Shown piece after piece: positions 124-56,631 of a DNA stretch of 57,441 nt. The translations under genes and the position numbers were made by a program. The first letter of the stretch is position 1, and each line of letters begins with the position of its first letter. The notes below the pieces were generated by a model that made no database searches, was not told where the DNA came from, and was given only the letters and a program-made list of their open reading frames with translations. The DNA comes from a virus. Taxonomy: Duplodnaviria > Caudoviricetes. The DNA is taken from IMG/VR virus record IMGVR_UViG_3300032267_000867, positions 1-57,441 of that record; one strand, 5' to 3'.

Positions 124-2217
124 GTCGCGCAGCAGGGTATCAACGCAATGCTGTGCCAGCGCCCGGCCCCAGGCGACATCGGTCACGTCGATGACCGGAT
201 TGCCCGGATCGCGCGCCACCGCCCGTATCAGGGCCAGCTTCATGGCGTTTTCCGCCAACCGCCCCGCGATGGCGGTGACGTAGGTTCCCTCGGCTTCGCG
301 CTGCTGCTGTAGCTGATCGTGGCGCATCGCCCGTCGGGCGTCGCTGGCTTCCGGTGTCTCGGGCACCATCATGACGTTGGCGGGCATATCCGCCATCATC
401 ACATCCGCCAAATTCCCCGTCCCAGCGCCCCGCGCAATCGCCTGTAAGGCGTCAATCAATGCTGGCGGCGGATCGGTCAGGATGGGTTCCTGCTCGTCCG
501 GATAGCTGCATGGCGAGACGAAAAGCAGCATCCGCGCCATCAACCCGTCGTGCAGGCTGGCCCCGGCTATGGCGTTCCAGAATTGGCCGGGCGTGGTGGT
601 CCCGTAAAAGCACGCATGGGGATCGTGGATGTCCTCGCGCGGGCGTCCCATCTTGGTCTGGTCGGCGTATTCCGTGCCCTGCCATGGCCCGCTGGCGCTG
701 CTGTAAAGCTCCTTGAGCATGGCGGCGATTTGCTTGCGGTGGCTTCCCGCCTTGTCGCTGACGATGCCGGTCAGCCAGTCACCGAATTCGTCAATCTGAA
801 ACAACATCGCGGGATGCCGCGCCAGGGCGGTGCGGAGGCCAGAACCGGATGCGATGTCGGACCCGCCCAAATACTGCGACAAGTCGGCGGCGTTCAGGCA
901 TTTTTTGATCACGCGGCGGGCGTGGTCCTTACCGGCGCCAGAATCCGCAATGCCGATGGCGTAGATGTTGGTGCGCAGATCGGTGGTGGTGCAGTAGCGT
1001 CGCCCGGCCAGCGTGCCGATTAGCGTGATCCCGGCGGCGAGAGCGAGGAAAGGCTGTGGGCTGATCGCCGTTGCCTCGCAATGCTCGACGAACATTTTCA
1101 GCGCCCCAGGCACGTCCATCAAATCCGCGCTCACCGGCAAGGGGGCTTTTTGCTTTTCGGCGCTGCGGGCGTCCAGCTTGGCCAACAATGCAGCGGCGGC
1201 GTGCGGCTGACCGTCGGGAATGGCGGGCATGCGCTCAGGCACGTCGCGCGGCTTGCGCATCCCGTCTTGGAATGCGGTGCGCAAGGTGTTTTGCGCATGG
1301 CGGAAATCTTTGCAGGCGTGGCGAATGTCCGCCAGGGCGGCGGAAAGCTCCGTGAACGCAAAACCCTCCTGCAACTCCCCCGCCGCCACCAGCCCACCGA
1401 TGGAAAACGCCGCCTTGTTCAGCGTGTGGTGCTTGCTCCCATCCCACGCCCGACGGATGGCGTCACACTCGCTGTGCAGCGCCGCCACGCCGTAATGCGT
1501 GCCACCATCGGGGTTGTGGGGCCGATGCGCCATTGGCGTATGTGCGGGCGCTGTAGGGCGTTCTGGCGAAGCCGGTGGGGTTGTGGGAAATGTGAGGTTG
1601 CCGTCTAGGTCTCCGCACAAATCAAGCGCGCGTCCTTCGATGGCGAACACCAAATGATTCTCCGCGCCATCCACAAAGCCAAAATAGTAGGATTGCGAAA
1701 GGGTGAAGCTCTCGCGCGAAAGCGCGCCAACAAAAAGCCCATTGATCCGCGCCACCATATTCGCCCGCTCATCGGGCGCGATTGGTTGCGATAGCGGCAT
1801 CAGCAACCGCCAGCGCGGTGTTGCTGGGGTATGGCTGGGCGACGTGTAGAAAATGGCGGCAACATTGGCATTCGTCAAAATTGTGCGCGCCCGATCTGGG
1901 GTGATTTGCTCCCCGTCGTAATCTACCTCAATGCCGTTCACCTGCTGGACATTGGCGTTGTTGCGGAAGCTGCCACCGCCAGAACGGTGATCGCCAAACT
2001 TTGCCAGCTTCAGCCAAGGCAAGGCGTCTTTGCTGGATGCGTGGGTTGTTTTTAACCGCTCCATAAGAGCGCGGAGGCTCATTGTTTCTTCGGTTTTTGC
2101 AGAGGCCGCAAAATTCTGGAAAAACGTGAGGCCAATTGGCTTGTCCAGGGGAGAATCCGATGGCGTAGCGCCAAGGCTCCGACTTGCCAAATAATCGCTA
2201 AAACGTGAACCAGTCAT
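1..2217 (-). CDS. Primase-helicase: AEP-type primase, helical linker, DUF3987-like P-loop domain (5' part; continues at 57318-57190, about 781 aa in total)
   Basis: Absent from the ORF track because it runs off the edge. Manual translation from ATG 2217 (TGATG overlap with the HNH stop): MTGSRFSDYL..., EVDYD and YTSPSH primase motifs, Walker A ADSGAGKD, Walker B FQIDEFG. In frame with ORF 57190..57435. Confidence 0.85.
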   Translation of the reverse strand, partial: MTGSRFSDYLASRSLGATPSDSPLDKPIGLTFFQNFAASAKTEETMSLRALMERLKTTHASSKDALPWLKLAKFGDHRSGGGSFRNNANVQQVNGIEVDYDGEQITPDRARTILTNANVAAIFYTSPSHTPATPRWRLLMPLSQPIAPDERANMVARINGLFVGALSRESFTLSQSYYFGFVDGAENHLVFAIEGRALDLCGDLDGNLTFPTTPPASPERPTAPAHTPMAHRPHNPDGGTHYGVAALHSECDAIRRAWDGSKHHTLNKAAFSIGGLVAAGELQEGFAFTELSAALADIRHACKDFRHAQNTLRTAFQDGMRKPRDVPERMPAIPDGQPHAAAALLAKLDARSAEKQKAPLPVSADLMDVPGALKMFVEHCEATAISPQPFLALAAGITLIGTLAGRRYCTTTDLRTNIYAIGIADSGAGKDHARRVIKKCLNAADLSQYLGGSDIASGSGLRTALARHPAMLFQIDEFGDWLTGIVSDKAGSHRKQIAAMLKELYSSASGPWQGTEYADQTKMGRPREDIHDPHACFYGTTTPGQFWNAIAGASLHDGLMARMLLFVSPCSYPDEQEPILTDPPPALIDALQAIARGAGTGNLADVMMADMPANVMMVPETPEASDARRAMRHDQLQQQREAEGTYVTAIAGRLAENAMKLALIRAVARDPGNPVIDVTDVAWGRALAQHCVDTLLRDAGMHVADTDYERKIQKALNIIRKHGPLTADAMMRRHSLGLN

Positions 2218-4803: not shown

Positions 4804-5372
4804 TACACCAGCCTCCCTTCACGGCGGGCAAAATCAATCGGGTCAGCGGCACTCTTTCGCATATTGCAAGGCGCGCACAACAGTTGAAGATTGCGAGGCC
4901 AATTAGACCCACCGCGCGAAATCGGCTGGATATGATCGACGTGATACCCACCCTTGATGGAAATGCGACAATGCCCGCATTTGCCCCGTTGAGCGTCGAA
5001 GATGCGCTGCACATCGGCGGCAATATGTTGTCCCTCGGCGTTTCGCATTCTTGCGCGGCGCGCGCGTTGAATGCAGAGTTTTTTCTCTGGGTTGGCAGCA
5101 CGCCAAGCGGCGTTAATTTTCGCAACTTTATCTTTATTATTTTTGCGATAATTTGCGCGGCCTTCTTTTACTTTTTTAGGATTCGCTGCATACCATGCTT
5201 CTTTATGTTCACGGTTGCACATAAAGCACAAACGATTGGAAGTATGACGCTCGGCAACATGGCCGCGAGGGCAAGGCTTGCCCGTAAAATATTTCTTCAA
5301 CCCGTTGGCGAGCGCGTCGCCTCGGCTAATGACAGGACGGAATTCGGGTGATAAATTTGATTCAGTCATCAT
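4803..5372 (-). CDS. HNH homing endonuclease 2
   Basis: CGHC...HVDHIQPISRGGSNWPRNLQLLCAPCN; close paralogue of 2217..2966. Confidence 0.9.
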   Translation of the reverse strand: MMTESNLSPEFRPVISRGDALANGLKKYFTGKPCPRGHVAERHTSNRLCFMCNREHKEAWYAANPKKVKEGRANYRKNNKDKVAKINAAWRAANPEKKLCIQRARRARMRNAEGQHIAADVQRIFDAQRGKCGHCRISIKGGYHVDHIQPISRGGSNWPRNLQLLCAPCNMRKSAADPIDFARREGRLV

Positions 5373-5467
5373 AACCTCTGGTGTAGGTGTTGGTGGTTAG
5401 AAGCCGCCTCGGTGTTTCCAGCACCGGGCGGCTTTGTCATTTAAGCCAGAATCGTGAGCGACGGCAA
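5372..5467 (-). promoter_or_regulatory. Putative promoter and structured leader of HNH 2
   Basis: TTGCCG-N17-TTAAAT (5467-5439); hairpin AAGCCGCCCGGTG-CTGGAAA-CACCGAGGCGGCTT (5434-5401); TAACC can pair with GGTTA in the RBS. Confidence 0.45.
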
Positions 5468-5470
5468 CTC

Positions 5471-6400
5471 TCATTCCTGGGGGCCGTCCCGCCATTCCTC
5501 ACCGTCGGGCATGGTGTAGAGAACCCAAAAGTCGCCAGCGTCAATTTGCTCCCCACGCACAAAAGCGGGAATATACAGGTGCGACGCACAGCCAGCGCGC
5601 TGGTTTTCTGGCGAGATGAGCGTGACGTAACGCGCGCAGAGCCATTCCCCCTCGGGCGCGGGGGCGGAGTGCAAGCATGATCGGCAATGCCGCTCGGGCA
5701 TGGCGTCGCCATGACAGACGGCGGAGTGATCACAGAATTTGCATTCAAAATGCGTGGGGTCACTGCTGATCCGCGCGGGCGGTTCGACGCTGGCGATGAT
5801 CCTGGCGGCCTTGACGACAAGGCGCAGCGCGCATTCGGCATCGTATCGAATGCGTTCTTGATATAGCTCGTCGGTGTTTTTGTTCACCGCAAGATAGAAG
5901 GCGCGCTCGATTCCGGCGAGGTGCATGTAAACCTGCATCTGGGCGAAGTGCTGGGGCTTCGATTTTTCGACGCCATCCTTCTTGAGCGACGTGAAGGATT
6001 TTTCGCTGTGCGTTTTGAATTCGCAAACATGCCACGCCTTGGGCGCCTCGGGGAATCCAACGGCGACGCTATCCATGCTGCCACCGAAATGCCCGGAGGC
6101 GTCGCGGAGGTTGAATTGCTGACCGGTCTCCGGGTCCAGCGCCATCACCGTCACGCCAATGCGACGCAGGTCGTGGATAAAGCGGCTTTCGGCTTGGTGG
6201 CCTGTTTCGAACAGGCGCAGCATCCGTCCGGAATGATTGGCGCGCGTCGCCCACCGCCAAGAATACCAGATGGCGCGGCTGCACTCCGCACCGATCATGC
6301 TGGCCCCCAAGTGGTTGCGGTAACCGGAACCCTGCTCGGCGGCGTAGGCGTCGTAGATCGCAGAGACGGTTTTGTCCTCTGCTGGTGGTAGTGCAACCAT
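5471..6400 (-). CDS. Cas4-like PD-(D/E)xK exonuclease
   Basis: LGASMIGAECSR, GSMD...CEFKT, HFAQMQVYM, CKFCDHSAVC Cys cluster. Confidence 0.85.
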   Translation of the reverse strand: MVALPPAEDKTVSAIYDAYAAEQGSGYRNHLGASMIGAECSRAIWYSWRWATRANHSGRMLRLFETGHQAESRFIHDLRRIGVTVMALDPETGQQFNLRDASGHFGGSMDSVAVGFPEAPKAWHVCEFKTHSEKSFTSLKKDGVEKSKPQHFAQMQVYMHLAGIERAFYLAVNKNTDELYQERIRYDAECALRLVVKAARIIASVEPPARISSDPTHFECKFCDHSAVCHGDAMPERHCRSCLHSAPAPEGEWLCARYVTLISPENQRAGCASHLYIPAFVRGEQIDAGDFWVLYTMPDGEEWRDGPQE

Positions 6401-6417
6401 GTTGGTTCCCCTGCGTT

Positions 6418-6445
6418 AAAAAAAACCGGGGCGTTTCCGCCCCGG
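6418..6445 (-). terminator. Rho-independent terminator after the SSB gene
   Basis: CCGGGGCG-GAAA-CGCCCCGG followed by T8 on the minus strand. Confidence 0.85.
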
Positions 6446-6453
6446 CGCTTTGA

Positions 6454-6987
6454 TCACTTCCGCCAGGGCGGGACACCACCAGCGGCAGGCGCTGCGGGCC
6501 TGGGCGTGGAAGGCGGTGGGGCCTGCCTAGAGCTAAAGCTAGACGGTGCCTTGGCGACAGGCGCGCCGTCTCTGGCGGCGGCATAGCCCTTCACCACATT
6601 GCGACGGCGCTGCTCATCCGGCGGGAGGTCTTTGTCCCGGTTGTCCACTTCCACCGCCACGGTGATTGTCATGGGCAGGAAGTGAATTTCCTCACTATCC
6701 GAAATGTGTTGCTTGCCGATGGCCAAGCAGATGGCGGAAAGCGTGCGCAAAGCGATTTCCTGCGCGGTCGGGTTAGGATTCTTGATGTTCAGGTTGTCCC
6801 AAACCCGGCGCCCTTTGGAGGGGCCATCGATGATTTCGAGCGTCAACTGAAGCATCGTCCCGCCCTTGGCGGTTTCCTTCATCACGCTTTCGATCACCTG
6901 CGCCGTGTAATTGCCGGGCGGCAGATTGTCGCGGGGCTGTGCGGGTTCGACGCTGGTGGCGTCAAAGGTTTCACCGAGAAATGCCAT
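6454..6987 (-). CDS. DUF669-family single-stranded DNA-binding protein
   Basis: Likely start MAFLGETFDA (6987, AAGGA RBS); LPPGNY, LQLTLEIIDG, RRVWDNLN, C-terminal PPW; lies between Sak4-like and Cas4-like genes. Confidence 0.8.
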   Translation of the reverse strand: MAFLGETFDATSVEPAQPRDNLPPGNYTAQVIESVMKETAKGGTMLQLTLEIIDGPSKGRRVWDNLNIKNPNPTAQEIALRTLSAICLAIGKQHISDSEEIHFLPMTITVAVEVDNRDKDLPPDEQRRRNVVKGYAAARDGAPVAKAPSSFSSRQAPPPSTPRPAAPAAGGVPPWRK

Positions 6988-6991
6988 GGTC

Positions 6992-7768
6992 TTATTCCTT
7001 GCTGGTTGCGAAATAGGGGATGTGCTGGGCGATGGTCGGCCACATCTGTTCCGGATCATCCGGCAAAGAGATGGATTCCGGCATGCGATAGCGGTTTTTT
7101 GCGAGGTGAGACGGGCGCTCGGTGGTGTAAAGCACGCGCTGCCCACCCCCAACGCCGCGCGCCCGGCTGCTGGGGTCTTTCTTGTCGTCCTTCACGACAC
7201 TGACGCGATAATTCATAAACCACACGCAGTCGACGTGCTCCTGCACCAGGGCGCTCGCGGCCTTCTGGAGCTTGGGCGCGTAGCGGTCGTAGGCTTCCAC
7301 CTCGGGGCTTTCAAACCGTTTTGGCTCCGTATGGGCGATCATGGCGATGGTCATTTTGCGCTCGTCGCGGAGGGCGTTCAACCCGTCCAGAATTCCGCGC
7401 CATGTGTCCAGCGAGGCGGCGTAGCCCTTGCCGTAGCCGGGCTGTTCAATATCTTTCCAATTGTTCAGGCGGCACGTCTCTGCCCACACCAGCGGCTCCA
7501 GCCAGTCGAGGCTGTCCAGCACCACGGTTTCGAATTCGTGGTCCTCGCTGTAAAGCGAGGCGATGGTCTCCATCACCTCGGCGTAGCTTTTAAGCAGCCC
7601 GAAGGTGGGCATGTCGATCATGCCAAGACCGTCCTCGGTCTGGAGGATAACCGGCTTGGGCATGCCAGCACCAAGCGAGGTTTTGCCGATGCCATGCACC
7701 GCATGGAGCATGATGCGCGGCGCTTTCACCTCCGTGCTGCGGCGCAATGACGCCATTGAAATTGCCAT
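6992..7768 (-). CDS. Sak4-like AAA recombination ATPase
   Basis: Start MAISMASL (7768); HGIGKT Walker A, VVLDSLDWLE, GYGKGY, AKNRY. Confidence 0.85.
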   Translation of the reverse strand: MAISMASLRRSTEVKAPRIMLHAVHGIGKTSLGAGMPKPVILQTEDGLGMIDMPTFGLLKSYAEVMETIASLYSEDHEFETVVLDSLDWLEPLVWAETCRLNNWKDIEQPGYGKGYAASLDTWRGILDGLNALRDERKMTIAMIAHTEPKRFESPEVEAYDRYAPKLQKAASALVQEHVDCVWFMNYRVSVVKDDKKDPSSRARGVGGGQRVLYTTERPSHLAKNRYRMPESISLPDDPEQMWPTIAQHIPYFATSKE

Positions 7769-7860
7769 CTTTTTTCCTTTCCCAAAAGCACCAAAAAGCA
7801 AAGTGCAAAAATATGTTTACAACATAGGGCGCGGGGAGCGCAATAGGCCAATCGGCAATT

Positions 7861-8223
7861 TTATTTGATGGGCCGCAAAGTCAGGTAAACGGCGCCTTCG
7901 CGGGCCACATCATGCTCCACCACCAGCCGCTGGCATAGCCTGTCGTTGGTGATCGCGCCCCCGGCTTGGCAGGCGTCGAGCAACTGCTTCACGCGGTTAT
8001 CAACATCGCCGCGCATTTTTGGCAGTTCAATAATTGCTTCAAACGGCGCGGCAATCTGCTTGTGCGCACGTTGTATGGACACTTCCCAGCGCGCCGCATT
8101 TGCCCAGGTTTTGGACGCGGCGCGCTTAATCAACTTCGCGCCCGTGCGGGTGCGAATCGGCACCCACGCTTTATTGATGCTGGGCGGCAGCGGCAGAATC
8201 AGCGTGATGTCGTCATCGCTCAC
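7861..8223 (-). CDS. rusA: RusA-family Holliday junction resolvase
   Basis: LPLPPSINK, GDVDNRVKQLLDA, ITND motifs. Confidence 0.85.
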   Translation of the reverse strand: MSDDDITLILPLPPSINKAWVPIRTRTGAKLIKRAASKTWANAARWEVSIQRAHKQIAAPFEAIIELPKMRGDVDNRVKQLLDACQAGGAITNDRLCQRLVVEHDVAREGAVYLTLRPIK

Positions 8224-8456
8224 GCGGCTTCGTCGGCGGGCTTAACGACGTCAATCACCAGATCAGGGCGCACCACGCTGGGGTGAATTCCCAGCGTGTG
8301 ATGCAGGGCGGATAGCGCTTTACGCGACACACCTCGACGGCGCCAGTAATGCACGCGCTGGCGCGAATAACCCAATTTTCGCGCGACGCCCACCGTGCCA
8401 CCGGCTGCATCAATAACGTCCCGCGCTAAGGCGGCCAGATCGTAAGAGTTTTCCAT
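8220..8456 (-). CDS. Cro/YdaS-like HTH protein, probably leaderless
   Basis: IDAAGGTVGVARKLGYSRQRVHYW HTH and RPDL motif; ATG at 8456 is 6 nt after a -10 box. Confidence 0.75.
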   Translation of the reverse strand: MENSYDLAALARDVIDAAGGTVGVARKLGYSRQRVHYWRRRGVSRKALSALHHTLGIHPSVVRPDLVIDVVKPADEAA

Positions 8457-8491
8457 GCCGCGTTTGTAAACGCGGCGTTGACGCGCGGCAA
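8457..8491 (-). promoter_or_regulatory. Promoter of the Cro-like gene with overlapping palindromic operator
   Basis: TTGCCG-N17-TACAAA; perfect inverted repeat GCCGCGTTT-GT-AAACGCGGC (8457-8476) covers the -10. Confidence 0.6.
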
Positions 8492-8505
8492 GAGTGTTTT
8501 GACGC

Positions 8506-8534
8506 TTGCACGACACAAGCCGCCATGACATAAG
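8506..8534 (+). promoter_or_regulatory. Divergent plus-strand promoter
   Basis: TTGCAC-N17-CATAAG with an extended -10 TG. Confidence 0.5.
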
Positions 8535-8539
8535 ACAGG

Positions 8540-8624
8540 GCGCTCTCCTGGCGTGATGTGATCATTGTTCCTTTCCCATGATACCAACTTGCCCGCCTTG
8601 GTTCGAGCCAGGGCGGGCATTTTT
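8540..8624 (+). ncRNA. Candidate anti-Shine-Dalgarno small RNA
   Basis: Promoter upstream; loops UCUCCUG (8544-8550) and UGUUCCUUUCCC (8566-8577, closed by AUCAU/AUGAU); 13-bp terminator hairpin with G-U pairs that form only on the plus strand, then U5. Confidence 0.55.
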
Positions 8625-8976
8625 ATGGGCGGTGCAAAACCCTAATTCGCACAAACCCGACGCCGGTGATGTGCAGGCGCTTCGCGGCTTCGTGCGACAG
8701 GTCCAGAATTCTCGATGAAACGTATGGCCCCCGGTCATTGATTCGCACGACCACAGACCTATCGCGGTGCATTACCTCGACGATGGTGCCAAACGGCAGG
8801 CACCGGGAAGCTGCGGTTAAGGCGGTGCTTCGGAAAGGCTCCCCGGATGCGGTGGGGCGTCCATTGTGGCTGGCGCCATACCATGACGCCAGCCCGGTTG
8901 GTGGGCACCGTGGCGACGCCTGGGCGGCACCAGCGGCGAAGATCAGGGTGGCTAGGGCCACCCTGGCGCCACTCAT
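8623..8976 (-). CDS. rlpA: RlpA-like (DPBB) lytic transglycosylase with signal peptide
   Basis: GLASWYG, TASGEPF, LTAAS, VRINDRGPY, RILDLS; hydrophobic N-terminus ending in AQA. Confidence 0.85.
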   Translation of the reverse strand: MSGARVALATLIFAAGAAQASPRCPPTGLASWYGASHNGRPTASGEPFRSTALTAASRCLPFGTIVEVMHRDRSVVVRINDRGPYVSSRILDLSHEAAKRLHITGVGFVRIRVLHRP

Positions 8977-9176
8977 GGCGGAGCCTCCGTTACTCGGCCA
9001 ATCGTAATATTGCTCTGCGCGCGGATGTCCTTATTGCTCCAGGACCAGCATTGTCCGTCATAATCGAACACGACCCAGAGCAGATCGTGCTCGATCCCAT
9101 AATCAATCACCATTTGCGCCATGCCTTTGCCGTGCGGCGTGCGGACGGGGATGGGCGGGTTGAGTTGAGTGATCAT
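8973..9176 (-). CDS. Hypothetical phage protein
   Basis: ATGA-coupled, GGAGG RBS; QLNPPIPV...IDYGIEHDLLWVVF. Confidence 0.7.
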   Translation of the reverse strand: MITQLNPPIPVRTPHGKGMAQMVIDYGIEHDLLWVVFDYDGQCWSWSNKDIRAQSNITIGRVTEAPP

Positions 9177-9412
9177 GGCTTCACCTCCAGGGCTGCGCGG
9201 ATGCTTTCCATGGTGGCATTCCAGAGATTGGCCGTCTCAACTGCCGTAAGTTGATCCGATGCCATGCCTTCCATTGCCGCTTCGGCGTGCTGAAGCGCCT
9301 CCCGCAGCCGTTCAATTTCATTGGCTGCTGCCGTCATTACATCAGACGCCGCGTCCTCCTGCTCTCCTTTGCCGCATAATTTAAATGCCCAATATCTGAG
9401 TAGCTCGCTCAT
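9173..9412 (-). CDS. Hypothetical protein
   Basis: ATGA-coupled on both sides; AAANEIERLR coiled-coil motif common in phage accessory genes. Confidence 0.65.
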   Translation of the reverse strand: MSELLRYWAFKLCGKGEQEDAASDVMTAAANEIERLREALQHAEAAMEGMASDQLTAVETANLWNATMESIRAALEVKP

Positions 9413-9723
9413 GGCTTCACCCCCGGCGCTGCTGCGACCATGGCGCGGTATAAAGCCACGATCCCATGGCCATGCGCACTTGATGCATGTCCTGCATCAA
9501 ACATTTCCTCAGTCGGCTCTACCGGCACCACGGCCCACCCTGCCGCGCGGATGGCGGCGAGGGCGGCAGTAGTAGCGTCATCCAGCCGCCGACGCTCCAA
9601 AGCGCCCAGCCGGTTGAGGGGATTTCCGCTCATGTGTGGCGAGTTGTTCATAGAGAAATGCTTCGCCATTGCCATTGCCATCATCTCCACCAGTTCGGCT
9701 TCGTCTTTTGCTGGTTCGCTCAT
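9409..9723 (-). CDS. Hypothetical protein (Ead/Eaa-like VPVEPTEEM motif)
   Basis: Likely start MSEPAK at 9723; GWAVVPVEPTEEM...YRAMVAAAP. Confidence 0.65.
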   Translation of the reverse strand: MSEPAKDEAELVEMMAMAMAKHFSMNNSPHMSGNPLNRLGALERRRLDDATTAALAAIRAAGWAVVPVEPTEEMFDAGHASSAHGHGIVALYRAMVAAAPGVKP

Positions 9724-10100
9724 TCCACAATCCCCCAATGGCTGATGCTTGCAGGTTCTGCTGTCCCCGGCTCCCACCAGCGCAGCATGGCGCGGATGGC
9801 GCGGGGGAGTTCCATGTCGCGTTCGTACCGGCGCATTTCATTCGGGTATTCGTCTCGATAAGGATACGAGCCGCTGGCATTTTCCGCCAATTCCTCGACA
9901 GCCTCCTCCATCAGAGGGCGCACCTGCTCAAGCCTCACACGCATCGCCTGCAACATCTGCATATGCTCGCGCAGGCTGCTGCTGGCACCCTCGATGTAAT
10001 TGGCGGCGTCGTTCAGCAGAGCCTGATTGTGGGACACATAAAACCCCGCCATAAAGCGCAGGCCGTCGATCATCTCGGGGACGGTTCGCATCTTGTTCAT
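9720..10100 (-). CDS. Hypothetical protein
   Basis: Likely start MNKMRT at 10100; ATGA overlaps on both sides. Confidence 0.6.
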   Translation of the reverse strand: MNKMRTVPEMIDGLRFMAGFYVSHNQALLNDAANYIEGASSSLREHMQMLQAMRVRLEQVRPLMEEAVEELAENASGSYPYRDEYPNEMRRYERDMELPRAIRAMLRWWEPGTAEPASISHWGIVE

Positions 10101-10360
10101 ACCCCCGCCTCGATCCGCATGGCGCTGGCCAAATAGTGTTTGGCGAGCACCTCGCGCCCATATGCCATATGCTCTGCGGCGATGGCCTGTAGCATCACGG
10201 AGACGTGAGCATCCAGCGCCGCCGGAATTCCGGGGTGGCAATGCCCAACGCGTGCGATGGTCATGGCGATCTTGGTGGCCTCGTCGCGCATTTCCTCGGC
10301 GCATTTGAGGTAGCGGGCATCGACGGACGTGACAGCCATTTTCTGAAGATTCTCCATCAC
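10097..10360 (-). CDS. Hypothetical protein
   Basis: Tightly coupled ORF in the minus-strand operon. Confidence 0.55.
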   Translation of the reverse strand: MMENLQKMAVTSVDARYLKCAEEMRDEATKIAMTIARVGHCHPGIPAALDAHVSVMLQAIAAEHMAYGREVLAKHYLASAMRIEAGV

Positions 10361-10563
10361 AAAAACCCCACGACCATCTTAATGTATTGCAGATCGTGCC
10401 GGGCGGCGTCGTCGTCGCCGTTGGAACGGTGGGTGAGGTATTCCGCCACCGTAGCCAGCACCTCGCGGGCCACTTCGGGATTGGCGGGCGTTTCGCGGCT
10501 GATTTGTTTGACGCGCTGCGCCATTTCCAAATCCACCAGCTTGATGGGTAGGGGGTTATCCAT
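10357..10563 (-). CDS. Hypothetical protein
   Basis: Likely start MDNPLP at 10563 with GGAAGGA RBS. Confidence 0.55.
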   Translation of the reverse strand: MDNPLPIKLVDLEMAQRVKQISRETPANPEVAREVLATVAEYLTHRSNGDDDAARHDLQYIKMVVGFL

Positions 10564-10840
10564 GTGTTTCGTCCTTCCGTGATGTTGCGAGGTAGATAGC
10601 CTTGCCGCCCGCACCCAGGCGGCTTTTCCGGTAGAATTCAATTGGGCCATAGAGCGCGCATTTGATTTGCAGGTTGCGCATCATGGCCATGGCCGACTGC
10701 CTCCATGTTCTGGGGCGCTCGGCTTTGGTGAGGTAGATCGCGTCGGCCAGCGCCTCCAAAGGCACTTCCTCGCCGCACCGCGCGGCGAGGAATTTAACCG
10801 CGCGAGCTTCGTGCGGCGTGAAGTGCAGGTCGAGTTTCAT
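10556..10840 (-). CDS. Winged-helix DNA-binding protein (OmpR C-terminal-like)
   Basis: FTPHEARAVKFLAARCGEEVPLEALADAIY resembles effector wHTH domains. Confidence 0.55.
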   Translation of the reverse strand: MKLDLHFTPHEARAVKFLAARCGEEVPLEALADAIYLTKAERPRTWRQSAMAMMRNLQIKCALYGPIEFYRKSRLGAGGKAIYLATSRKDETHG

Positions 10841-10868
10841 TTAAAACTTTCCAAAAATGCGAGGGGTT

Positions 10869-10893
10869 CCCCCGACTTTCGTCGGGGGTTTTT
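10869..10893 (+). terminator. Hairpin with plus-strand T-tract (antisense terminator or minus-strand stabiliser)
   Basis: CCCCCGAC-TTTC-GTCGGGGG-TTTTT; GAAA loop on the minus strand. Confidence 0.55.
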
Positions 10894-10895
10894 GC

Positions 10896-11240
10896 TCAAA
10901 AGTTGTAATCGTAAAATTTGACCGGCTTGTCGCCCAGCGAGTAGCGATTGTCGTGGGCGTCATACCACTGACTATCGCGGCGCAGGCGGATGCGGATAAC
11001 CTTGCGTTCCAAGTCGCTGCTGATGAACCACTTCTGGTCGCGCTGGTTTACCACCGTGCCGAAGAACCCACCGGGCACAAAGTCCATTTTCCAAGAATCG
11101 TCGCGGTCGGCCTTCATCGCGCGGATTTCGATGGTCTTGGGGCTGATCTGGCGGATAACTTCGTAGGGGTTCACATCGCTGTAGCCGAGCTTGTTGGCGT
11201 AGGGGGCGACGGTCATGGTGGTGTTGGTTGCGGTGGTCAT
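10896..11240 (-). CDS. Hypothetical phage protein with its own promoter
   Basis: AGAGAAAGGA RBS; YSDVNPYEVIR...C-terminal FYDYNF. Confidence 0.75.
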   Translation of the reverse strand: MTTATNTTMTVAPYANKLGYSDVNPYEVIRQISPKTIEIRAMKADRDDSWKMDFVPGGFFGTVVNQRDQKWFISSDLERKVIRIRLRRDSQWYDAHDNRYSLGDKPVKFYDYNF

Positions 11241-11247
11241 TGGGTGG

Positions 11248-11318
11248 GTTCCTTTCTCTCAGGCGTCGTTGCCTGGAGATTTTATAAACCCACCCCGGAA
11301 AAAAGAAAATAGCCTTTC
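11248..11318 (-). promoter_or_regulatory. Early-type promoter-hairpin-RBS cassette
   Basis: 20-mer GAAAGGCTATTTTCTTTTTT identical to 54764-54783; TATAAA -10; CAGGC/GCCTG hairpin; GAAAGGAAC RBS. Confidence 0.6.
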
Positions 11319-11362
11319 CGCCTAAATCGGAAGATTTTTTTGACAAAAATGCAGGGACGGGT

Positions 11363-11584
11363 TCAGCCGTCGTCCGGCATCAACACGTTGCCGATTTTGA
11401 CATAAAGACCCATGGCCACCGCAGATGACGGCGGCACGCTGGCGTAGCCAATTTGTTTCGCCGTTTCGTAAACGATCATCATCACGGTGGGATTGCGTGA
11501 CAACACCTCTTCCAACGCCTTTCGCGCGGAAGCTGCAATCAGGCAATTGTCAGGGTCAATCTTTTCGATCTTCTCGCTCTTCAC
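11363..11584 (-). CDS. Hypothetical protein
   Basis: GTGA-coupled to the phosphoesterase gene. Confidence 0.6.
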   Translation of the reverse strand: MKSEKIEKIDPDNCLIAASARKALEEVLSRNPTVMMIVYETAKQIGYASVPPSSAVAMGLYVKIGNVLMPDDG

Positions 11585-12594
11585 GCGGAACGTCCCGCTT
11601 TGACGCGAATGCGCGGCTTACCGGCTAATTGCTGGCCGCGAAACCACGCGACCCCATTTACAATTTCGCACAATTCTGGCGGCATAAGCTCTCCGTCCTT
11701 CCATGTTAAAACGGCAAAGCCGGGATTCCAAAGTCTGGTATTGCCTTGCATGTAGCCAAAACATGGCCATGCTGGATCAGCCAACATGCCAATCTGCACG
11801 CCATATCGGCGCCCGCGCATATCGACCATTGGTTTCACTTCCAACGAGTGCGTATCGCCGGAAACAAAAGAAACGCCTGCTTTGACCGCGTTATTCCATC
11901 CCGCATGAATTCCGCCGTGGAACCTGTGCATCACAACGGAGTCGTTCAAATCCAGTCGATGACACATTTTCCAATCTGGAAATTGCCCGGCGAAGTCAAA
12001 TCCATCCACGCCTTCAAACATAGCAGCATTTAACGCTAAATATTTATCGAACCGATCATCATGATTGCCGCGCACCCAAAATCTCAACGCGCGCGGCGCT
12101 AGTCCCATAATATCGTCGAGATGCTGTTTGGCCGCGCTTAGTTCTTCTTTGACTTTGACGCGACGATTCCACCCCAGCGGGTCATGGCGCGATGGTTCGC
12201 CCATATCCACCAAATCGCCCACACTCAGCAAAATATCGGGCTGCACCAGAGGAATGGCGCGCAATAGCGCTTCATGCGCTAAGCTGCGGGGCTGTGACAG
12301 CGACGTCCAATGCGCATCGCTAAAAGCCACCGCAACGGCGTTTAAATGGTTGATTTTTAACGTCAATTCGCATTCCGGTGGATTATCCGGATCATACGCC
12401 ACCGCCATCGCCTTGTGCGCTTTGCGCACATCGGGCTTGTTGAAACGACTGAGCGCCGCTTCGTATTGATTTGCAGCGGTTTTATTGCTCATCGGCGGTA
12501 TAAATGACCGCGCCGCTGCCGTCACATTGCCGTGCAGCATCACCGCGTTATAGACTGGTTCTATGTCGCTCCACTGGTAAGCGGGCTGTGCCAT
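11581..12594 (-). CDS. Calcineurin-like metallophosphoesterase
   Basis: SDAH, GDLVD, GNHDDR, VMH and GDTH metal-binding motifs. Confidence 0.85.
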   Translation of the reverse strand: MAQPAYQWSDIEPVYNAVMLHGNVTAAARSFIPPMSNKTAANQYEAALSRFNKPDVRKAHKAMAVAYDPDNPPECELTLKINHLNAVAVAFSDAHWTSLSQPRSLAHEALLRAIPLVQPDILLSVGDLVDMGEPSRHDPLGWNRRVKVKEELSAAKQHLDDIMGLAPRALRFWVRGNHDDRFDKYLALNAAMFEGVDGFDFAGQFPDWKMCHRLDLNDSVVMHRFHGGIHAGWNNAVKAGVSFVSGDTHSLEVKPMVDMRGRRYGVQIGMLADPAWPCFGYMQGNTRLWNPGFAVLTWKDGELMPPELCEIVNGVAWFRGQQLAGKPRIRVKAGRSA

Positions 12595-35805: not shown

Positions 35806-35822
35806 TTTGCGTTATCCTTCGC

Positions 35823-35892
35823 GTCCAAGGGGTAGGATGCAGCAGGCAGGTGGACTACTCCTGCTTTTCGGACCGTCGCCCTAGCTGCACCC
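35823..35892 (-). ncRNA. Candidate structured RNA (three-way junction with possible pseudoknot)
   Basis: P1 GGGUGCAGC/GCUGCAUCC, P2 GGGC/GUCC, GAAAA linker, P3 GCAGG/CCUGC; loop GUCCA is complementary to downstream UGGAC. Confidence 0.5.
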
Positions 35893-35898
35893 GTTCGA

Positions 35899-36345
35899 TT
35901 AAACCAGATTCCAGAGGTTGTTGTTGATCTGGTAGTAGCCGCTGACGGTGACGGAATAGCTCGCGTCCTCGCCTGCGAAATTTAACTCACGCACATTCTG
36001 AATGGCGCAGTTGTTGAAGGTGTAAGCCGGAAGCGACGTGGTGTCGGGCGTCACCGTGATGTCGCCAATCGTGCTCAACGCCTGACGCTGCGCCTCCCAG
36101 AGAGCCGCAAGGTTCTGCGTCTTGAGCAGCGAAATGGTCACCGTCACCATCTGATAGGGAAACGGCGAGGTGATGGTGCCCGTCATCGTCGGGATCATCG
36201 TCGTCGTTTCGCCCTCAAAGGCGATGGCGATGCCAGGGCGCCCCAGGAAGGGCGCCGTGACTTGCAGGGCCGGATAGTCCGGAATGACCACGCTGCCCCG
36301 TAACCGGTTGAGCGTGCCCTGAGCGACTTGTGGATTAGCTGCCAT
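35899..36345 (-). CDS. Tail tube protein
   Basis: 148 aa directly after the sheath gene; strong AGGAG RBS. Confidence 0.75.
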   Translation of the reverse strand: MAANPQVAQGTLNRLRGSVVIPDYPALQVTAPFLGRPGIAIAFEGETTTMIPTMTGTITSPFPYQMVTVTISLLKTQNLAALWEAQRQALSTIGDITVTPDTTSLPAYTFNNCAIQNVRELNFAGEDASYSVTVSGYYQINNNLWNLV

Positions 36346-36361: not shown

Positions 36362-37972
36362 TCAGCCGCCAGCCGGGAACGACGAGACGTTGACGTAAAA
36401 CACGATCTGGATGAAGCCGCGCTGCGGCGTGTAGGTGACCGAGAGGCCGCGATAGATGCCCGCAGGGTAATCCGCCGGATTCTGCGAGACGTAGGTCACG
36501 AACGGCACCGCGTTAACCGTGATGGGCGCGAGCGCGAGGCCAAAAGAGATGGCGTTGCGCATAACGGTCTGCGCCACCGCCTGAAGCCGGTTGATGCCGT
36601 TCTGGTCGTAATACAGCGGGTTCTGGGAGTTGTTCGAACCGTTGATCACCGCATTAGAAATGGTGATGTCCATGTTGATCTGCACCCAGTCCACCGAATA
36701 CCAATAAGTGGCATCGTGGGCGTCCATCATGGTGCCCCAGAGCAGGATGGTGTTGCTGATGCCACCTTCCGCGCCAGTGCCCACGACGTTGACGCTTTCG
36801 TTCTTGAGCGTGGTCAGCAGAGCGTTGTTGCCGCGCGTCGGGAACGGCGTCACGCCGTAAAGATACTTGAAGGCGAACGGTGCAACGAGGTTCGCTGCGC
36901 TGGGTTCGTAAGCCAGGAAGTTCCAGAAGGCGGAAACAACCGTGAATTCCGTAACCGGAGCGCCCGCGTTGCCATACAGGCTGGCCTTGAGGCTGCCGGT
37001 AACGGTAAGCGCGCCAGGGTCAACCGCCTTATAGGCGGTGATGTCCACGCCATTCGCCACAACGGCTTGGTATGTGCCGTTGTAAGCCGAAGGCGTGCAA
37101 CCCACGATGGTGAACCAGTCGCCCTTAGAAATGCCGCTGGTGTTAAGGGTCGTGAACGTGATGGCGCCCGAGGTCCAAACTGCGCCGATCAGTTCGTTTG
37201 CGCCGTAGGTGCCGAATTGCGGCGACTCAATCAGCGTAAACGCGCACTTCATCAAGTTGGTGTAGCTGTTGTAGGTGGCCAGCGTGGTCGTGATGAAGAA
37301 ATAGGTGCGCGCCGTGGTGGATTCGAATTCCGCCAGCAAAGCCAGGAAATCCGCGTTGCCATCCCACTGTTTCGGCACAACGTAGGCGTAGAAGTAGCCT
37401 TCCGCGCCGGGCGTGTAGTCGCTGTTGGGGTTGGCCTGGATGTATGCGGCCAGCGCGGCCACACCGTCTTCCGTATTGCCCGGCCCAAGCTCCAGCACAT
37501 AGCAGGACAAGCCAGAACCCTGGGCAAAGAACGTGTTGCTCATCGCGGTAAGCTGGATCGCGCTTTGCGGAACGTATGTGCCGCCCGTGCCCGAAGCCAA
37601 AATCAATTCCTGGCCCAGGTTGTAGGTGTATTGCGTCGTGCTGGTGATGGTGCAGAGGTAGGTGCCGTTATAAGCCGACGGTCCAAGCCCACCGTCGGTG
37701 ATGCCAGCCATCGTCAAGACGATCTGACTGCCAACGGTATAGCCATGCGGCGAAACCGTCGTGGCTGTCACAAGCGCTCCGGCCACCACCACCTGATCCA
37801 GCGGGGCGGGCGCAGTCAAGATTGCCGTGAGATCGGCTTCTTGCGTGATGAGCGTTGCGGTGCCCGGGCTAGTGGTCGTCCCACCTTGGGAAATCAGCGC
37901 GCCCGTCTTTTGCAGAGTGGCGGGCGCTGCGCCAACCGTCTGCGTCACATTTACTTGAACAATGGTTGGCAT
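36362..37972 (-). CDS. Tail sheath protein (DUF3383-like, contractile tail)
   Basis: IVQVNVT N-terminus, YWYSVDWVQI, PLYYDQNGI, YPAGIYRG. Confidence 0.8.
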   Translation of the reverse strand: MPTIVQVNVTQTVGAAPATLQKTGALISQGGTTTSPGTATLITQEADLTAILTAPAPLDQVVVAGALVTATTVSPHGYTVGSQIVLTMAGITDGGLGPSAYNGTYLCTITSTTQYTYNLGQELILASGTGGTYVPQSAIQLTAMSNTFFAQGSGLSCYVLELGPGNTEDGVAALAAYIQANPNSDYTPGAEGYFYAYVVPKQWDGNADFLALLAEFESTTARTYFFITTTLATYNSYTNLMKCAFTLIESPQFGTYGANELIGAVWTSGAITFTTLNTSGISKGDWFTIVGCTPSAYNGTYQAVVANGVDITAYKAVDPGALTVTGSLKASLYGNAGAPVTEFTVVSAFWNFLAYEPSAANLVAPFAFKYLYGVTPFPTRGNNALLTTLKNESVNVVGTGAEGGISNTILLWGTMMDAHDATYWYSVDWVQINMDITISNAVINGSNNSQNPLYYDQNGINRLQAVAQTVMRNAISFGLALAPITVNAVPFVTYVSQNPADYPAGIYRGLSVTYTPQRGFIQIVFYVNVSSFPAGG

Positions 37973-49738: not shown

Positions 49739-50628
49739 GCCACCGCCATATCGTCAAACAGATCGACTGCGCCAGCTTCGCTTGCGTCAAGATTCCGGCA
49801 AGCCTGCCGCCAATAGGTTTCCTTGAGTTCAACGCCCACAAACTTGCGGCGGGCGCGCAAAGCACCGAAACCTTCCGATCCAATCCCCATAAACGGAGAT
49901 AGCACCACGTCGCCCGGGTTGCTCCACATGCGCAACGCACGTTCAATCACGTCGAGTTGCAGCGGGCACAAATGCCGCTCGTCGCCCATTTCCTTGGCGG
50001 CGGCGGTGTTGAGCGTGCGGGTTTGATTGACCGTCATCCAAACCGGGCTGGCGATTTCCTGCCAGAGCGGCAGCGGGAATTCGCTTGGCGTATGCTTGAT
50101 CGGTGAAGCGTTCACGCCCGGCTTGCGGAACACCAGCAGGTAATCCGGCATGCCTTGGCGACTGCGGCTGCTATCGGCCTGCAACGTCTTGTAGAGCAGC
50201 CCGTGAGCCTTGGTGCGGGTCATTTCCACCACCGGGCACTTCCAGATGGTCACACGACTATGCAGCACCCATCCGGCTTCCATGTGAGTTCGGATGATGT
50301 CACCGGAGAAATCCTTAATCCCAATTTCTCCGTCGATCCACGCGCGCATCGGCAGATCGGAACAATGCACCGCGCTCAACCGGCCCGGTTTTGTGATCCG
50401 GAATTTCTCCGCCACCTCAAACGCATAATGCTTAGCGAATTCGCCATCCGTGGCGCTATTGCCCATGTCAGCGGCGCTGCTGCTGTAAATGAACAAATTC
50501 CCGAATGGCGGCGAATAGACCGAAAAATCCACGGAAGCGTCCGGAAGCTGCCGCAAAACATCCACGCAATCGCCGTGGTAGGCGACGTAGCCGTCGCCAT
50601 GCGCCTCGTTCAAGCACTGAATAGCCAT
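49735..50628 (-). CDS. DNA methyltransferase, beta class (N4-C/N6-A)
   Basis: GDC, catalytic SPPF, H.CPLQ, SPFMGIGS SAM-binding motif, GVEL. Confidence 0.9.
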   Translation of the reverse strand: MAIQCLNEAHGDGYVAYHGDCVDVLRQLPDASVDFSVYSPPFGNLFIYSSSAADMGNSATDGEFAKHYAFEVAEKFRITKPGRLSAVHCSDLPMRAWIDGEIGIKDFSGDIIRTHMEAGWVLHSRVTIWKCPVVEMTRTKAHGLLYKTLQADSSRSRQGMPDYLLVFRKPGVNASPIKHTPSEFPLPLWQEIASPVWMTVNQTRTLNTAAAKEMGDERHLCPLQLDVIERALRMWSNPGDVVLSPFMGIGSEGFGALRARRKFVGVELKETYWRQACRNLDASEAGAVDLFDDMAVA

Positions 50629-51992
50629 GATGGTATCTTTCCCTTGTGGTTAGGTTGATATTTTACGCGGGTTTCCGATTTTTGACCAGCCCGCTTCATC
50701 GCGGAAGCCATGGCGCGCTTCATTTTTGAGTGATCCGCGCTCTTGCGGTCGATCACGCGGCCAATCTGGTCTTCGCCTTCCGCCACGATCAAATGGCAGT
50801 CCACCGGTCGGGCTTGACCAAAGCGCCAGCATCGACGCACTGCCTGATACCATGCCTCGTAGCTAAAGCTGCGCCCGGCGAAAATCATCACGTTGCAATG
50901 CTGCCAGTTCATGCCAAAGCCCGCGACGGATGGCTTGGTGATCAGCACCCGGGCGGTGCCCGTGGCAAACGCCGTCAACCGATCTTCTTTTTGCCGGGCA
51001 TCCATGCTGCCGCGCACCTCGACGGCATCGGGAATCGCAGCACGCAATGCGTCGGCTTCATAATCGGTGTCGCACCACAACAGGCACGCGCCTTCGGTAG
51101 GCACAAGGCTGGCGCACATTGCGGCGCGGGCGTCGGCGGTTTGACGTTTAACGTCATGCAACGTAGTCGCGCTTACCTCCAGCGAGAATAGGGCGCCAGC
51201 GGGCGCGCGAACATCGCCCGCCGCCTTGTGGCGGAGGACGTTAAGCGGAGGCAGGATATATTCGCTGGCGTCGTGGCCCAGGTCCGCAGGCGTCTCTGCC
51301 ATCCGCGCCCACGACGCCATCCAATCCCAGAATTCTTGCTCGGCGTGTCGCTTGATCCGCCATTTCTGGCTGGCCTGTTCGGTGTCGTTGATAAAGAATC
51401 TGGTCAGCATCTCGGTGGACGACATGATGCCGAGAAACTCGGCGTGATTGCCAAGTTCCATGTGATCGTTTGGGGCTGGCGTTGCGGTTGCCGCCATGCG
51501 GAAACGCGCGCCGCTGAATGCCTCGATCAGACTGCGCGTGGTTTTGCCGGTAAAACTTTTTAGGATTGAGCTTTCGTCGAGAGCCACAGCACCAAACGCG
51601 GAGGGGTTCAGCGCATCAAGCATGTCGTAGTTGCAAACGTTGATGCCGGGACCGGCTTCGGATTGGCTGCGGATTTGCCGGGCTTGATACCCAAACCGAT
51701 CCGCCTCGCGGACGATCTGCGCTGCGACGGCAAGCGGCGTTAAAATCAGCGCCATGCCGTTGGTGGCAGCGGCGGCGTGGTGGCACCATTCAAGCTGAGT
51801 GAGTGTCTTTCCCAAGCCAGTGTCCAGAAAGCAGCCCCACCGGCCTTGGCGCAGCCCAAACGCCACGCAATCGGCTTGGTGCGGCTTAAGGGCCGGGTTG
51901 AGCTGCGGCACCACGTCCAGCCCGGAAGCGTGCGGGCGCGGCGCTTTGCTGGCCAAAAATTTTAGATATGTGGAGTTATCTCCATCGCTCAT
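50610..51992 (-). CDS. SNF2-like helicase/ATPase
   Basis: LDTGLGKT, LDESSILK, TATPAPND, QAVRRCWRFGQ. Confidence 0.88.
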   Translation of the reverse strand: MSDGDNSTYLKFLASKAPRPHASGLDVVPQLNPALKPHQADCVAFGLRQGRWGCFLDTGLGKTLTQLEWCHHAAAATNGMALILTPLAVAAQIVREADRFGYQARQIRSQSEAGPGINVCNYDMLDALNPSAFGAVALDESSILKSFTGKTTRSLIEAFSGARFRMAATATPAPNDHMELGNHAEFLGIMSSTEMLTRFFINDTEQASQKWRIKRHAEQEFWDWMASWARMAETPADLGHDASEYILPPLNVLRHKAAGDVRAPAGALFSLEVSATTLHDVKRQTADARAAMCASLVPTEGACLLWCDTDYEADALRAAIPDAVEVRGSMDARQKEDRLTAFATGTARVLITKPSVAGFGMNWQHCNVMIFAGRSFSYEAWYQAVRRCWRFGQARPVDCHLIVAEGEDQIGRVIDRKSADHSKMKRAMASAMKRAGQKSETRVKYQPNHKGKIPSWLFSA

Positions 51993-52064
51993 TGTGATTT
52001 CCTTTCCTGATGGGCCAATGGCCCATCGCTTTTTTACGGGATAATGTTTTTTGACGATAGGGGA

Positions 52065-53651: not shown

Positions 53652-53718
53652 GTTCCTTTCTCTGCGGGGCATCATCGCCCCGCCCGATTTTTTTACAGGG
53701 TTTTTTTTACCGCGCCAA
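53652..53718 (-). promoter_or_regulatory. Promoter-hairpin-RBS cassette
   Basis: TTGGCG-N17-TAAAAA; GCGGGGC-GATGAT-GCCCCGC; AGAGAAAGGAAC. Confidence 0.65.
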
Positions 53719-53897: not shown

Positions 53898-53911
53898 TTG
53901 ATTGATTCCTT

Positions 53912-54205
53912 TCAGGCGATAATGGCGAAGGCGGAAGCGACGCTGGACACGCTGCCTGCTCCTGAGAGCGCATCGCTTGCAGCCCCGTAAAGATCGCCGC
54001 GCCCAATGTGGCCGCAGAACGAAACCACCCACCCATCTGCGTCAGTGCGGGCGATGACGGTCTTGCCGTCGGCTTCGACGCGGAGCAGGCGATGCCCGTT
54101 CATCTCGACCACCACCAGGGTTCCAAAGGTTCCGGAATCTGTCCCATCCCGCAAAAAGCAGTTGATGATGGTCTCGATTTTTTCAGCGGTGTTGATGTTG
54201 AACAT
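53912..54205 (-). CDS. Hypothetical early protein downstream of the hammerhead
   Basis: AGAGAAAGGA RBS. Confidence 0.7.
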   Translation of the reverse strand: MFNINTAEKIETIINCFLRDGTDSGTFGTLVVVEMNGHRLLRVEADGKTVIARTDADGWVVSFCGHIGRGDLYGAASDALSGAGSVSSVASAFAIIA

Positions 54206-54222
54206 TTTGAATTCCTTTCTCT

Positions 54223-54288
54223 GGCTGGCTCATCAGCGCCGGGTTGCCGCCCGGCGGACCATTGGGGCCGAGGCCCCTAGGTTTCGCC
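54223..54288 (-). ncRNA. Hammerhead ribozyme, type II
   Basis: GGC-GAAA-CC...G-GUC^-CGCCGGG-CGGCAA-CCCGGCG-CUGAUGA-GCC: complete catalytic core, three stems, GUC cleavage triplet, and a possible loop I / 3' tail pseudoknot (GGC/GCC). Confidence 0.9.
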
Positions 54289-56441: not shown

Positions 56442-56513
56442 GTTCCTTTCCTGCGGCGGTCGGTTGATCCCGCCGCCTGCACCCTTTTTAATGCTCATCA
56501 AAAAACGATGCAA
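56442..56513 (-). promoter_or_regulatory. Promoter-hairpin-RBS cassette
   Basis: TTGCAT-N17-TAAAAA; GCGGCGG/CCGCCGC hairpin; GGAAAGGAAC. Confidence 0.7.
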
Positions 56514-56631
56514 CCCAAAAAGCGCCCATAGGACAAATTATTTTACAATCGCCAGGAACGCCACCAGAGGCCCGCCAGCGGCTTTAAGGCGTTCTCAAGG
56601 GATCATCTGCCGCCCAGGCTCCAGACCGCCT

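Follow-up and report, generated by a model that had tools for sequence, protein, structure and literature searches.

The known regulatory RNAs of phages are few, and most were described in a small set of model phages that infect enteric bacteria. This study concerns a predicted small RNA of an uncultivated freshwater phage (IMG/VR record IMGVR_UViG_3300032267_000867; Duplodnaviria, Caudoviricetes). The window analyzed is the full virus record of 57,441 bp with its terminal repeats. The predicted RNA lies on the plus strand, back to back with a gene for a Cro/YdaS-like protein, and carries a candidate seed for the ribosome-binding site (RBS) of a Sak4-like gene.

Several described RNAs resemble this one in part. 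The sar RNA of phage P22 (68/69 nucleotides, nt), as presented in the account of PMC12197685, is likewise a small phage RNA that runs against the direction of the surrounding genes and blocks translation through RBS pairing. In that account sar and its target, ant, are encoded exactly opposite each other with full complementarity (PMC12197685), whereas the best predicted target here is 0.8 kb distant and offers 9-11 contiguous pairs. The lambda OOP RNA (77 nt in the same account, PMC12197685) is similar in size, has its own promoter and terminator, and is read against the rightward early operon, near cro. It is described there as overlapping the 3' end of cII and acting in cis (PMC12197685), whereas the RNA in our window overlaps no conserved gene. 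The c4 RNA of P1/P7 is a phage RNA whose exposed loops pair around an RBS and which has a role in immunity (PMC12197685). The RNA here differs from c4-type RNAs in having no such Rfam match, either at the gathering score or at E values up to 10. Processing of an operon leader releases the c4 RNA, which controls that operon through specific target sites within the same transcript. Phage P4 also has an immunity RNA, the CI RNA, with loops that pair around an RBS, and we see c4 and this CI RNA as the closest precedent for an RNA that replaces a repressor.

The alphaproteobacterial AbcR, cuckoo/CcsR and NfeR1 RNAs are also alike, as their unpaired CU-rich motifs pair with several Shine-Dalgarno regions. 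However, these RNAs are chromosomal and have at least two repeated hairpin loops, whereas our locus matched no model and its motif hairpin is not conserved. The predicted layout of the locus resembles the lambda cI/cro switch in its back-to-back promoters, its operator-like symmetry, its position at a late/early gene boundary and its one leaderless transcript. Here, however, the partner of cro is a predicted RNA and not a repressor protein, and no integrase was found. In lambda the leaderless transcript is that of cI, whereas here the predicted leaderless transcript is that of cro. By analogy, the RNA would work like sar, OOP and c4, but would act in trans through a short seed, from the cI position in a phage without CI or integrase.

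Proposed model

The explanation that we prefer, which we hold tentatively and at a little under an even chance, is that a plus-strand RNA is made from a promoter divergent from that of cro and that its seed covers the Shine-Dalgarno sequence of the Sak4-like gene. We infer the production of the RNA, its start and its pairing partner from observed sequence features and their conservation. In this model, the control region would contain two back-to-back host-type promoters with their -35 boxes in inverted repeat. The minus-strand promoter would give a leaderless mRNA that starts at the ATG of the Cro/YdaS-like protein (78 amino acids, aa) and continues into RusA, and the plus-strand promoter would give a non-coding RNA of ~80-87 nt, with a strong intrinsic terminator at its end. 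An invariant unpaired block, UUCCUUUCC, would act as the base-pairing seed over the Shine-Dalgarno sequence of the Sak4-like recombination/replication gene 0.8 kb away, and this pairing would lower Sak4 translation. Other early leaders of the same Shine-Dalgarno class could be weaker, incidental targets.

Conservation and features of the predicted RNA

Relatives were found by searches with the Cro-like protein, which gave 13 aligned sequences (58-100% identity) from viral contigs, one metagenome-assembled genome (MAG) contig and metagenome contigs. The module was carried by 12 of the 13, representing 10 distinct RNA-region sequences; the exception, L102, is the most distant. The minus-strand blocks common to all but L102 were, in order, an A-run beside the hairpin, AAGTT, GGAAAGGAAC, TCTTAT[GC]TCA, GTGCAAGC, ACTCTTGC, GTCAAC and GTTTACAA, followed by the cro ATG. 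The gene upstream of the module differs in L005, L006, L008 and L009, and therefore the module belongs with cro and not with the RlpA-like gene that precedes it in the window.

The putative small-RNA promoter (8506-8534, plus strand) has a -35 box of TTGCAC (8506-8511), a 17-nt spacer with TG at -15/-14, and a -10 box of CATAAG (8529-8534). The hexamers and spacing given in the original prediction (TTGCAC-N17-CATAAG) are present and were kept in all 10 relatives. The 10 distinct sequences follow the family pattern TTGCAY, 14 nt, TG, 1 nt, [CG]ATA[AC][AG], with constant spacing and a varying spacer sequence, and this pattern occurs once across both strands of the window.

The predicted RNA (8540-8626, plus strand) is ~80-87 nt long, with its 5' end placed at G8540-G8542, and extends to a U-run at 8620-8624. 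The proposed non-coding stretch of ~85 nt agrees with these sequence features, and no conserved open reading frame (ORF) was found on either strand. A plus-strand ORF at 8578-8718 was rejected as a gene: it would cross the terminator, and its ATG is missing in the L005 clade. Near the 5' end, a CUCUCC motif (8543-8548, plus strand) was kept in nine of the 10 distinct sequences, the exception being L009.

An intrinsic terminator was called by the scan at 8590-8624 (plus strand), with a stem at 8590-8619 of 13 pairs (9 G-C) followed by TTTTTAT, that is, a G+C-rich stem-loop with an immediate U-run. Folded alone, the hairpin of the window has an energy of -26.0 kcal/mol on the plus strand versus -19.0 kcal/mol on the minus strand. 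The plus strand was the more stable in all 10 distinct sequences, by 2-9 kcal/mol, and the U-run that follows the stem has 5-9 U. The claim that the G-U pairs of the terminator work only on the plus strand was borne out. Over 10 consensus pairs in nine sequences, 87 of 90 stem cells were paired on the plus strand, 15 of them as wobble pairs, versus 72 of 90 with no wobble pairs on the minus strand. In addition, one terminator pair changed on both sides among the relatives. In the hairpin of the Sak4 leader, which has to work in the mRNA and served as an internal control, the wobble pair is a minus-strand one.

For 8536-8626 the fold energy is -34.2 kcal/mol (z = -2.78) on the plus strand and -29.6 kcal/mol (z = -1.97) on the minus strand. 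Only one long run is invariant from the promoter to the terminator, UUCCUUUCC/TTCCTTTCC, which covers nine columns; 14 of the 55 columns are invariant (permutation P < 1e-5). None of the 10 distinct sequences pairs the UUCCUUUCC block in its minimum-energy fold, so the predicted non-coding RNA has a conserved, unpaired candidate seed. In the window's clade the candidate seed, the GUUCCUUUCC block (8567-8576, plus strand), lies in the loop between AUCAU (8561-8565) and AUGAU (8578-8582). In the window, the minimum-energy and centroid structures alike place the loop UGUUCCUUUCCC (8566-8577) on this stem, as had been proposed. The stem is limited to the window's clade, however, so the hairpin is not a general feature of the family; sequences of the other clade just leave the block unpaired.

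The RNA model R1 scored 77 bits in the window at 8541-8627, and in a search of 77 sources (447 kb) it matched only in the window and in L102. The match in L102 (Cro 58% identity; 1398-1464, plus strand; 31.8 bits) shares the strand of cro and directly precedes the promoter of that gene. It has a CU-rich stretch, AAACUU and a terminator, without the UUCCUUUCC block, and could be a homologue in inverted orientation or simply the upstream gene's terminator. Scans with the promoter plus motif pattern gave 19 stretches in viral contigs, of which seven were known family members and the other 12 were inspected and judged to be chance matches. In genome contigs the same pattern gave 103 stretches; among the ~80 listed, one was the L092 contig and the rest were judged by their titles alone. 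L092 is a near-complete relative (58,913 bp; Cro 91% identical) filed in a MAG named Candidatus Limnocylindrus, which is either a hint of the host or a case of mistaken binning.

Rfam includes models for C4, sar, DicF, AbcR and cuckoo RNAs. The Rfam 15 scan of the whole window found only int-alpA and Hammerhead_II, both away from the locus. Within 8150-8750, seven matches were obtained at E values up to 10, all with 12-15 bits against cut-offs of 35-75. With its Rfam scores below the cut-offs, the RNA would be set apart as a new family and a member of no described one. From these features, the locus probably holds a real plus-strand small-RNA gene.

The Sak4-like gene as the predicted target

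The Sak4-like gene (6992-7768, minus strand) encodes an AAA_24 ATPase (Pfam AAA_24, 4.6e-48). Its leader (7769-7806, minus strand) has a hairpin (7806-7788), UUUU and the RBS UGGGAAAGGAA (7784-7774), which ends 6 nt before the ATG at 7768. A 14-nt seed was compared with 80 leaders (-25 to +6) at a threshold of -11 kcal/mol; gene calling for this set was crude, with the starts 54205, 11240 and 53897 added by hand and 8531 left out. The Sak4 leader ranked first of the 80, at -17.5 kcal/mol with 11 contiguous pairs, and 9-11 pairs were kept in every lineage. Duplex energies of the full-length RNA against 45-nt leaders were dropped as uninformative, as shuffled RNAs did nearly as well.

The RNA locus and the Sak4 RBS also vary together. 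The base 5' of GGAAAGGA is G at both sites (both GGGAAAGGA) in the window with L002 and L003, in L092 and in L007. It is A at both sites (both AGGAAAGGA) in L104, which is identical to L005 across the RNA region, and in L006, L008/L106 and L009. By this switch a C-G pair would become U-A. On a maximum-likelihood tree of the cro-to-Sak4 region two joint changes were needed, and a tree with one change was not rejected (approximately unbiased test, AU p = 0.23). Cognate duplexes of the RNA with the Sak4 leader had energies of -15.5 to -18.4 kcal/mol (mean -17.3), while the non-cognate mean was -15.6 kcal/mol. We regard this covariation as suggestive of Sak4 pairing and not as proof. Repression of Sak4 translation by the small RNA is a possibility that we rate as clearly less than even but well above slight.

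Of the 80 loci retrieved with a Sak4 profile, one, L240, was 98% identical but is a fragment without the 5' end of the gene; identity at the others was 48-60%. Almost all of the 80 loci have ordinary, translationally coupled RBSs, so they provided no further covariation data. The closest cultured Sak4 homologues (54% identity) were in two Synechococcus phages.

The Cro-like gene and its putative promoter

For the Cro/YdaS-like helix-turn-helix gene (8220-8456, minus strand; 78 aa), the ATG at 8456 was taken as the start, given the stop codon that precedes it by 18 codons in three relatives. The protein scored 24.1 bits against Pfam YdaS_toxin (PF15943; cut-off 30) and matched a PHROG DNA-binding protein at 1.1e-07, and its best PDB profile match was 1rzs, deposited as 'Regulatory protein cro' (E = 0.37). 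Pairs within the L005 clade differed in cro by 12-22 synonymous versus 0-6 non-synonymous codons. The closest cultured homologues, at 41% identity, come from records of Klebsiella phages (238 of 241 matching records), where they are named 'transcriptional regulators'.

The putative cro promoter (8463-8491, minus strand) has a -35 box of TTGCCG (8491-8486), 17 nt and a -10 box of TACAAA (8468-8463), with the ATG 6 nt further on. An operator-like GTCAAC-N5-GTTTAC (8482-8466, minus strand) overlaps the spacer and the -10 box. All 13 aligned sequences, L102 included, keep this geometry, with TACAA[ATG] 6-7 nt upstream of the ATG and no purine-rich Shine-Dalgarno sequence. The short distance from the -10 box to the ATG implies a leaderless mRNA, and cro appears to be leaderless, expressed from a promoter back to back with that of the small RNA. 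The proposal that the RNA diverges from a Cro-like gene, where cI would sit, matches this layout, and the module is conserved in 10 distinct relatives. Also, a 14-nt inverted repeat (86% complementary) at 8452-8481 spans the cro start codon and the -10 box; its flanks vary between relatives and its symmetry is partly kept.

Evaluation of the model and alternative explanations

Several observations weigh against the proposed model. First, the small-RNA promoter is a weak match to the sigma-70 consensus (3 of 6 at -35 and 4 of 6 at -10, without the usual final T), and a consensus promoter scan of 7000-10000 called no promoters, this one included. Secondly, its -35 box forms an inverted repeat with that of cro (GCAAG, 12 nt, CTTGC), so the conserved -35 blocks could be a protein operator instead of promoters. 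Third, the small RNA is a prediction: the sequencing runs listed as covering 5000-12000 are eight of DNA, one of them probably the source of the window, and none of RNA. Fourth, the Sak4 covariation is a single position across seven lineages with one or two events, and gene conversion could also explain it, since the seed and the Sak4 RBS are only 0.8 kb apart. Re-pairings of five lineages favor the model, with only 6 of 120 as good as the true pairing, but the resulting permutation p of 0.05 ignores phylogeny. Fifth, shuffled 14-nt seeds reached the observed count of matching leaders in 5% of 500 trials. Lastly, the locus shares features with ordinary early leaders, which leads to the first alternative.

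This alternative, which we consider unlikely, is that there is no functional plus-strand RNA and that the conserved element belongs to the minus strand. It would lie in read-through or locally initiated mRNA, as an early-type leader (hairpin and Shine-Dalgarno sequence) for a short upstream ORF with an irrelevant peptide, as a standby site for ribosomes or as a GGA site bound by a protein, and the A-run would be part of the leader. Its hairpin and GGAAAGGAA layout is the same as that of five real early leaders on the minus strand (56452-56520, 53662-53700, 52008-52045, 11258-11300 and 7783-7843). Early leaders have a common module, in which a -10-like TAAAAA or TAAACA and a hairpin are followed by [AG]GAAAGGAA[CT], at 5-9 nt from the ATG. 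Three sites (56513, the UvrD-like gene and Sak4) also have a TTG-type box, 17-18 nt upstream; the module design is retained, with another hairpin sequence, in the UvrD-like leader of L115. Also, the scan reports plus-strand terminators at two early leaders, 53664-53683 and 52008-52028, although no plus-strand promoters were found upstream of these two hairpins. An ATG follows the motif in five of seven lineages, and in the L005 clade it lies 7-8 nt after GGAAAGGAA, within the range of real genes.

The ORF behind this RBS-like motif (8410-8565, minus strand; 51 aa) was nonetheless judged not to be a gene. In the window's clade its ATG lies 2 nt after GGAAAGGAA, whereas the ATG of real genes lies 6-9 nt after the GGA core. 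L092 and L009, two of the seven lineages, have no start codon within 14 nt, and the frame is shifted in L007. Products are 25, 51 or 90 aa long, and codon differences per pair were 0-1 synonymous versus 1-27 non-synonymous. Since starts, frame and codon changes show that the ORF is not conserved, GGGAAAGGAACAATG is not merely its RBS and start, the reading that the original prediction had named as its own refutation. In addition, a minus-strand element does not explain the conserved geometry of the plus-strand promoter. The wobble asymmetry of 15 to 0 favors the plus strand, and the U-run abuts the stem in five of the 10 sequences and follows CA in the other five. The minus strand showed no -35 box preceding the A-run, and in four lineages the A-run lacks the T of a -10 box. 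At the other early leaders the A-run sits in the -10-like TAAAAA and the stems are short, whereas the terminator stem at our locus has 11-13 pairs.

A second alternative, to which we also give only a minor chance, is that the RNA acts in cis. It would be fully complementary to any late read-through transcript running from 8623 toward cro and would mark it for cleavage, or converging transcription would insulate the early promoter; its anti-RBS appearance would be a by-product. The minus-strand hairpin is weaker and has no U-run, so late read-through is likely. L102 has a same-strand terminator at the same position, just upstream of the cro promoter, which suggests that insulation at that position matters. 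The minus-strand RBS-like motif that the RNA overlaps has no conserved ORF behind it. OOP and sar, as described in the account of PMC12197685, are precedents for such action. However, insulation leaves unexplained both the nine-nt invariant block amid drifting neighbors and the tracking of the Sak4 RBS by this block.

The original prediction was that one trans-acting RNA covers the RBSs of many early and replication genes and replaces CI as a switch or immunity factor, a reading that we consider quite improbable. Its sequence matches are real: the seven sites (7774-7784, 11248-11256, 51999-52007, 53652-53660, 53906-53913, 54212-54219 and 56442-56451, minus strand) have contiguous complementarity to the seed of at least 8 nt at exactly the coordinates given, each 12-18 nt before an ATG, and all are in early genes. 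The seed matched 11 of the 80 leaders, 10 of 39 early versus 1 of 41 late (Fisher p = 0.003). The RNA is in the cI position, and the genome has no match for an integrase, an S24 repressor or HTH_3. However, pseudo-seeds antisense to a leader's own RBS matched a median of 11.5 other leaders, and 56% of them equaled or beat the 11 of the real seed. The 3' tail of 16S rRNA, used as a yardstick only, matched 12 of 80. The control with the antisense of each RBS undoes the early enrichment found against the late leaders.

The contrast between early and late leaders arises because early genes use GAAAGGAA as their Shine-Dalgarno sequence. On the minus strand GAAAGGAA occurs eight times, this locus included, versus 0.78 expected from base composition (mean 0.85, maximum 4, in 200 shuffles); it is simply the early Shine-Dalgarno class of this phage. 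As the early genes have a common leader design, an RNA antisense to one leader matches the others. In the L009 lineage two sites are eroded, with 6 nt of complementarity kept at the UvrD-like site and 7 nt at the 54205 site. Thus, RBS complementarity does not support co-ordinated silencing. A similar result was obtained for the second motif, which had been proposed to match the RBS of the ORF starting at 56907 and those of the sheath and tube genes. The matches exist, as CAGGAGAG is the RBS of the 56907 ORF, AGGAGA precedes the sheath gene and the adjoining downstream ORF (the proposed tube gene), and CUCUCC is complementary to RBSs of the AGGAGA type. However, AGGAGA shows no overall enrichment (9 seen versus 15 expected).

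We also give little credence to a reading in which this phage, without integrase or CI, makes its early/late decision with the RNA in a repressor's place. Transcribed divergently from a leaderless cro, the RNA would mimic the anti-Shine-Dalgarno tail of the ribosome and titrate all early leaders, with their common hairpin and GGAAAGGAA design, shutting off early and replication translation or excluding superinfecting relatives.

Genome setting of the locus

Read along the minus strand, the genome begins with small early genes and two helicases (57-49 kb), followed by packaging, head, sheath and tail genes, and then by small genes and a DPBB/RlpA-like gene (8976-8623). After the RlpA-like gene come a 166-nt gap, the Cro/YdaS-like gene (8456-8220), RusA, the Sak4-like AAA_24 ATPase and further replication genes. 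By this gene order the locus lies at the late/early gene boundary.

The description of the genome as all-minus was upheld, as none of the five longest plus-strand ORFs had a PHROG match versus all five of the minus-strand ORFs tested alongside (terminase, portal, major head protein, helicase and one unnamed family). PHROG labels also placed helicase families at 52065-53645 and 50610-51992 and a tail sheath at 36362-37972. The absence of CI and integrase is consistent with the Pfam searches of the whole genome, in which models for tyrosine integrase, serine recombinase, S24 peptidase (PF00717) and HTH_3 (PF01381) had no match. A divergent repressor gene of the lambda CI/Cro type was not found: PF01381 and PF00717 had no match genome-wide and no plus-strand gene was recognised. 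An invertible cassette was rejected, with no flanking inverted repeats and no serine recombinase. The 7600-9200 region had no blastn match in the phages collection.

Two other RNA elements were seen in the window. An int-alpA RNA motif (RF02996; 49.6 bits, cut-off 35.8) lies at 35822-35891 (minus strand), just after the ORF at 35899-36345 that follows the sheath gene, in a genome without an integrase. A type II hammerhead ribozyme (RF02276; 39.4 bits, cut-off 37) at 54219-54289 (minus strand) has its end precisely at GAGAAAGGAAT, the RBS of an ORF of 97 aa that starts at 54205. Self-cleavage of the hammerhead would give the early mRNA of this ORF a ribozyme-derived 5' end.

Significance

A motif antisense to an RBS always resembles a multi-target regulator, so target counts need an 'antisense of any RBS' control. 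The RNA described here would be a new RNA family of uncultivated freshwater phages, seed-type and trans-acting, located at the repressor position of lambdoid phages beside a cro that appears to be leaderless. Provided that it is made, this RNA would be a compact case of RNA control over a phage recombination/replication gene.

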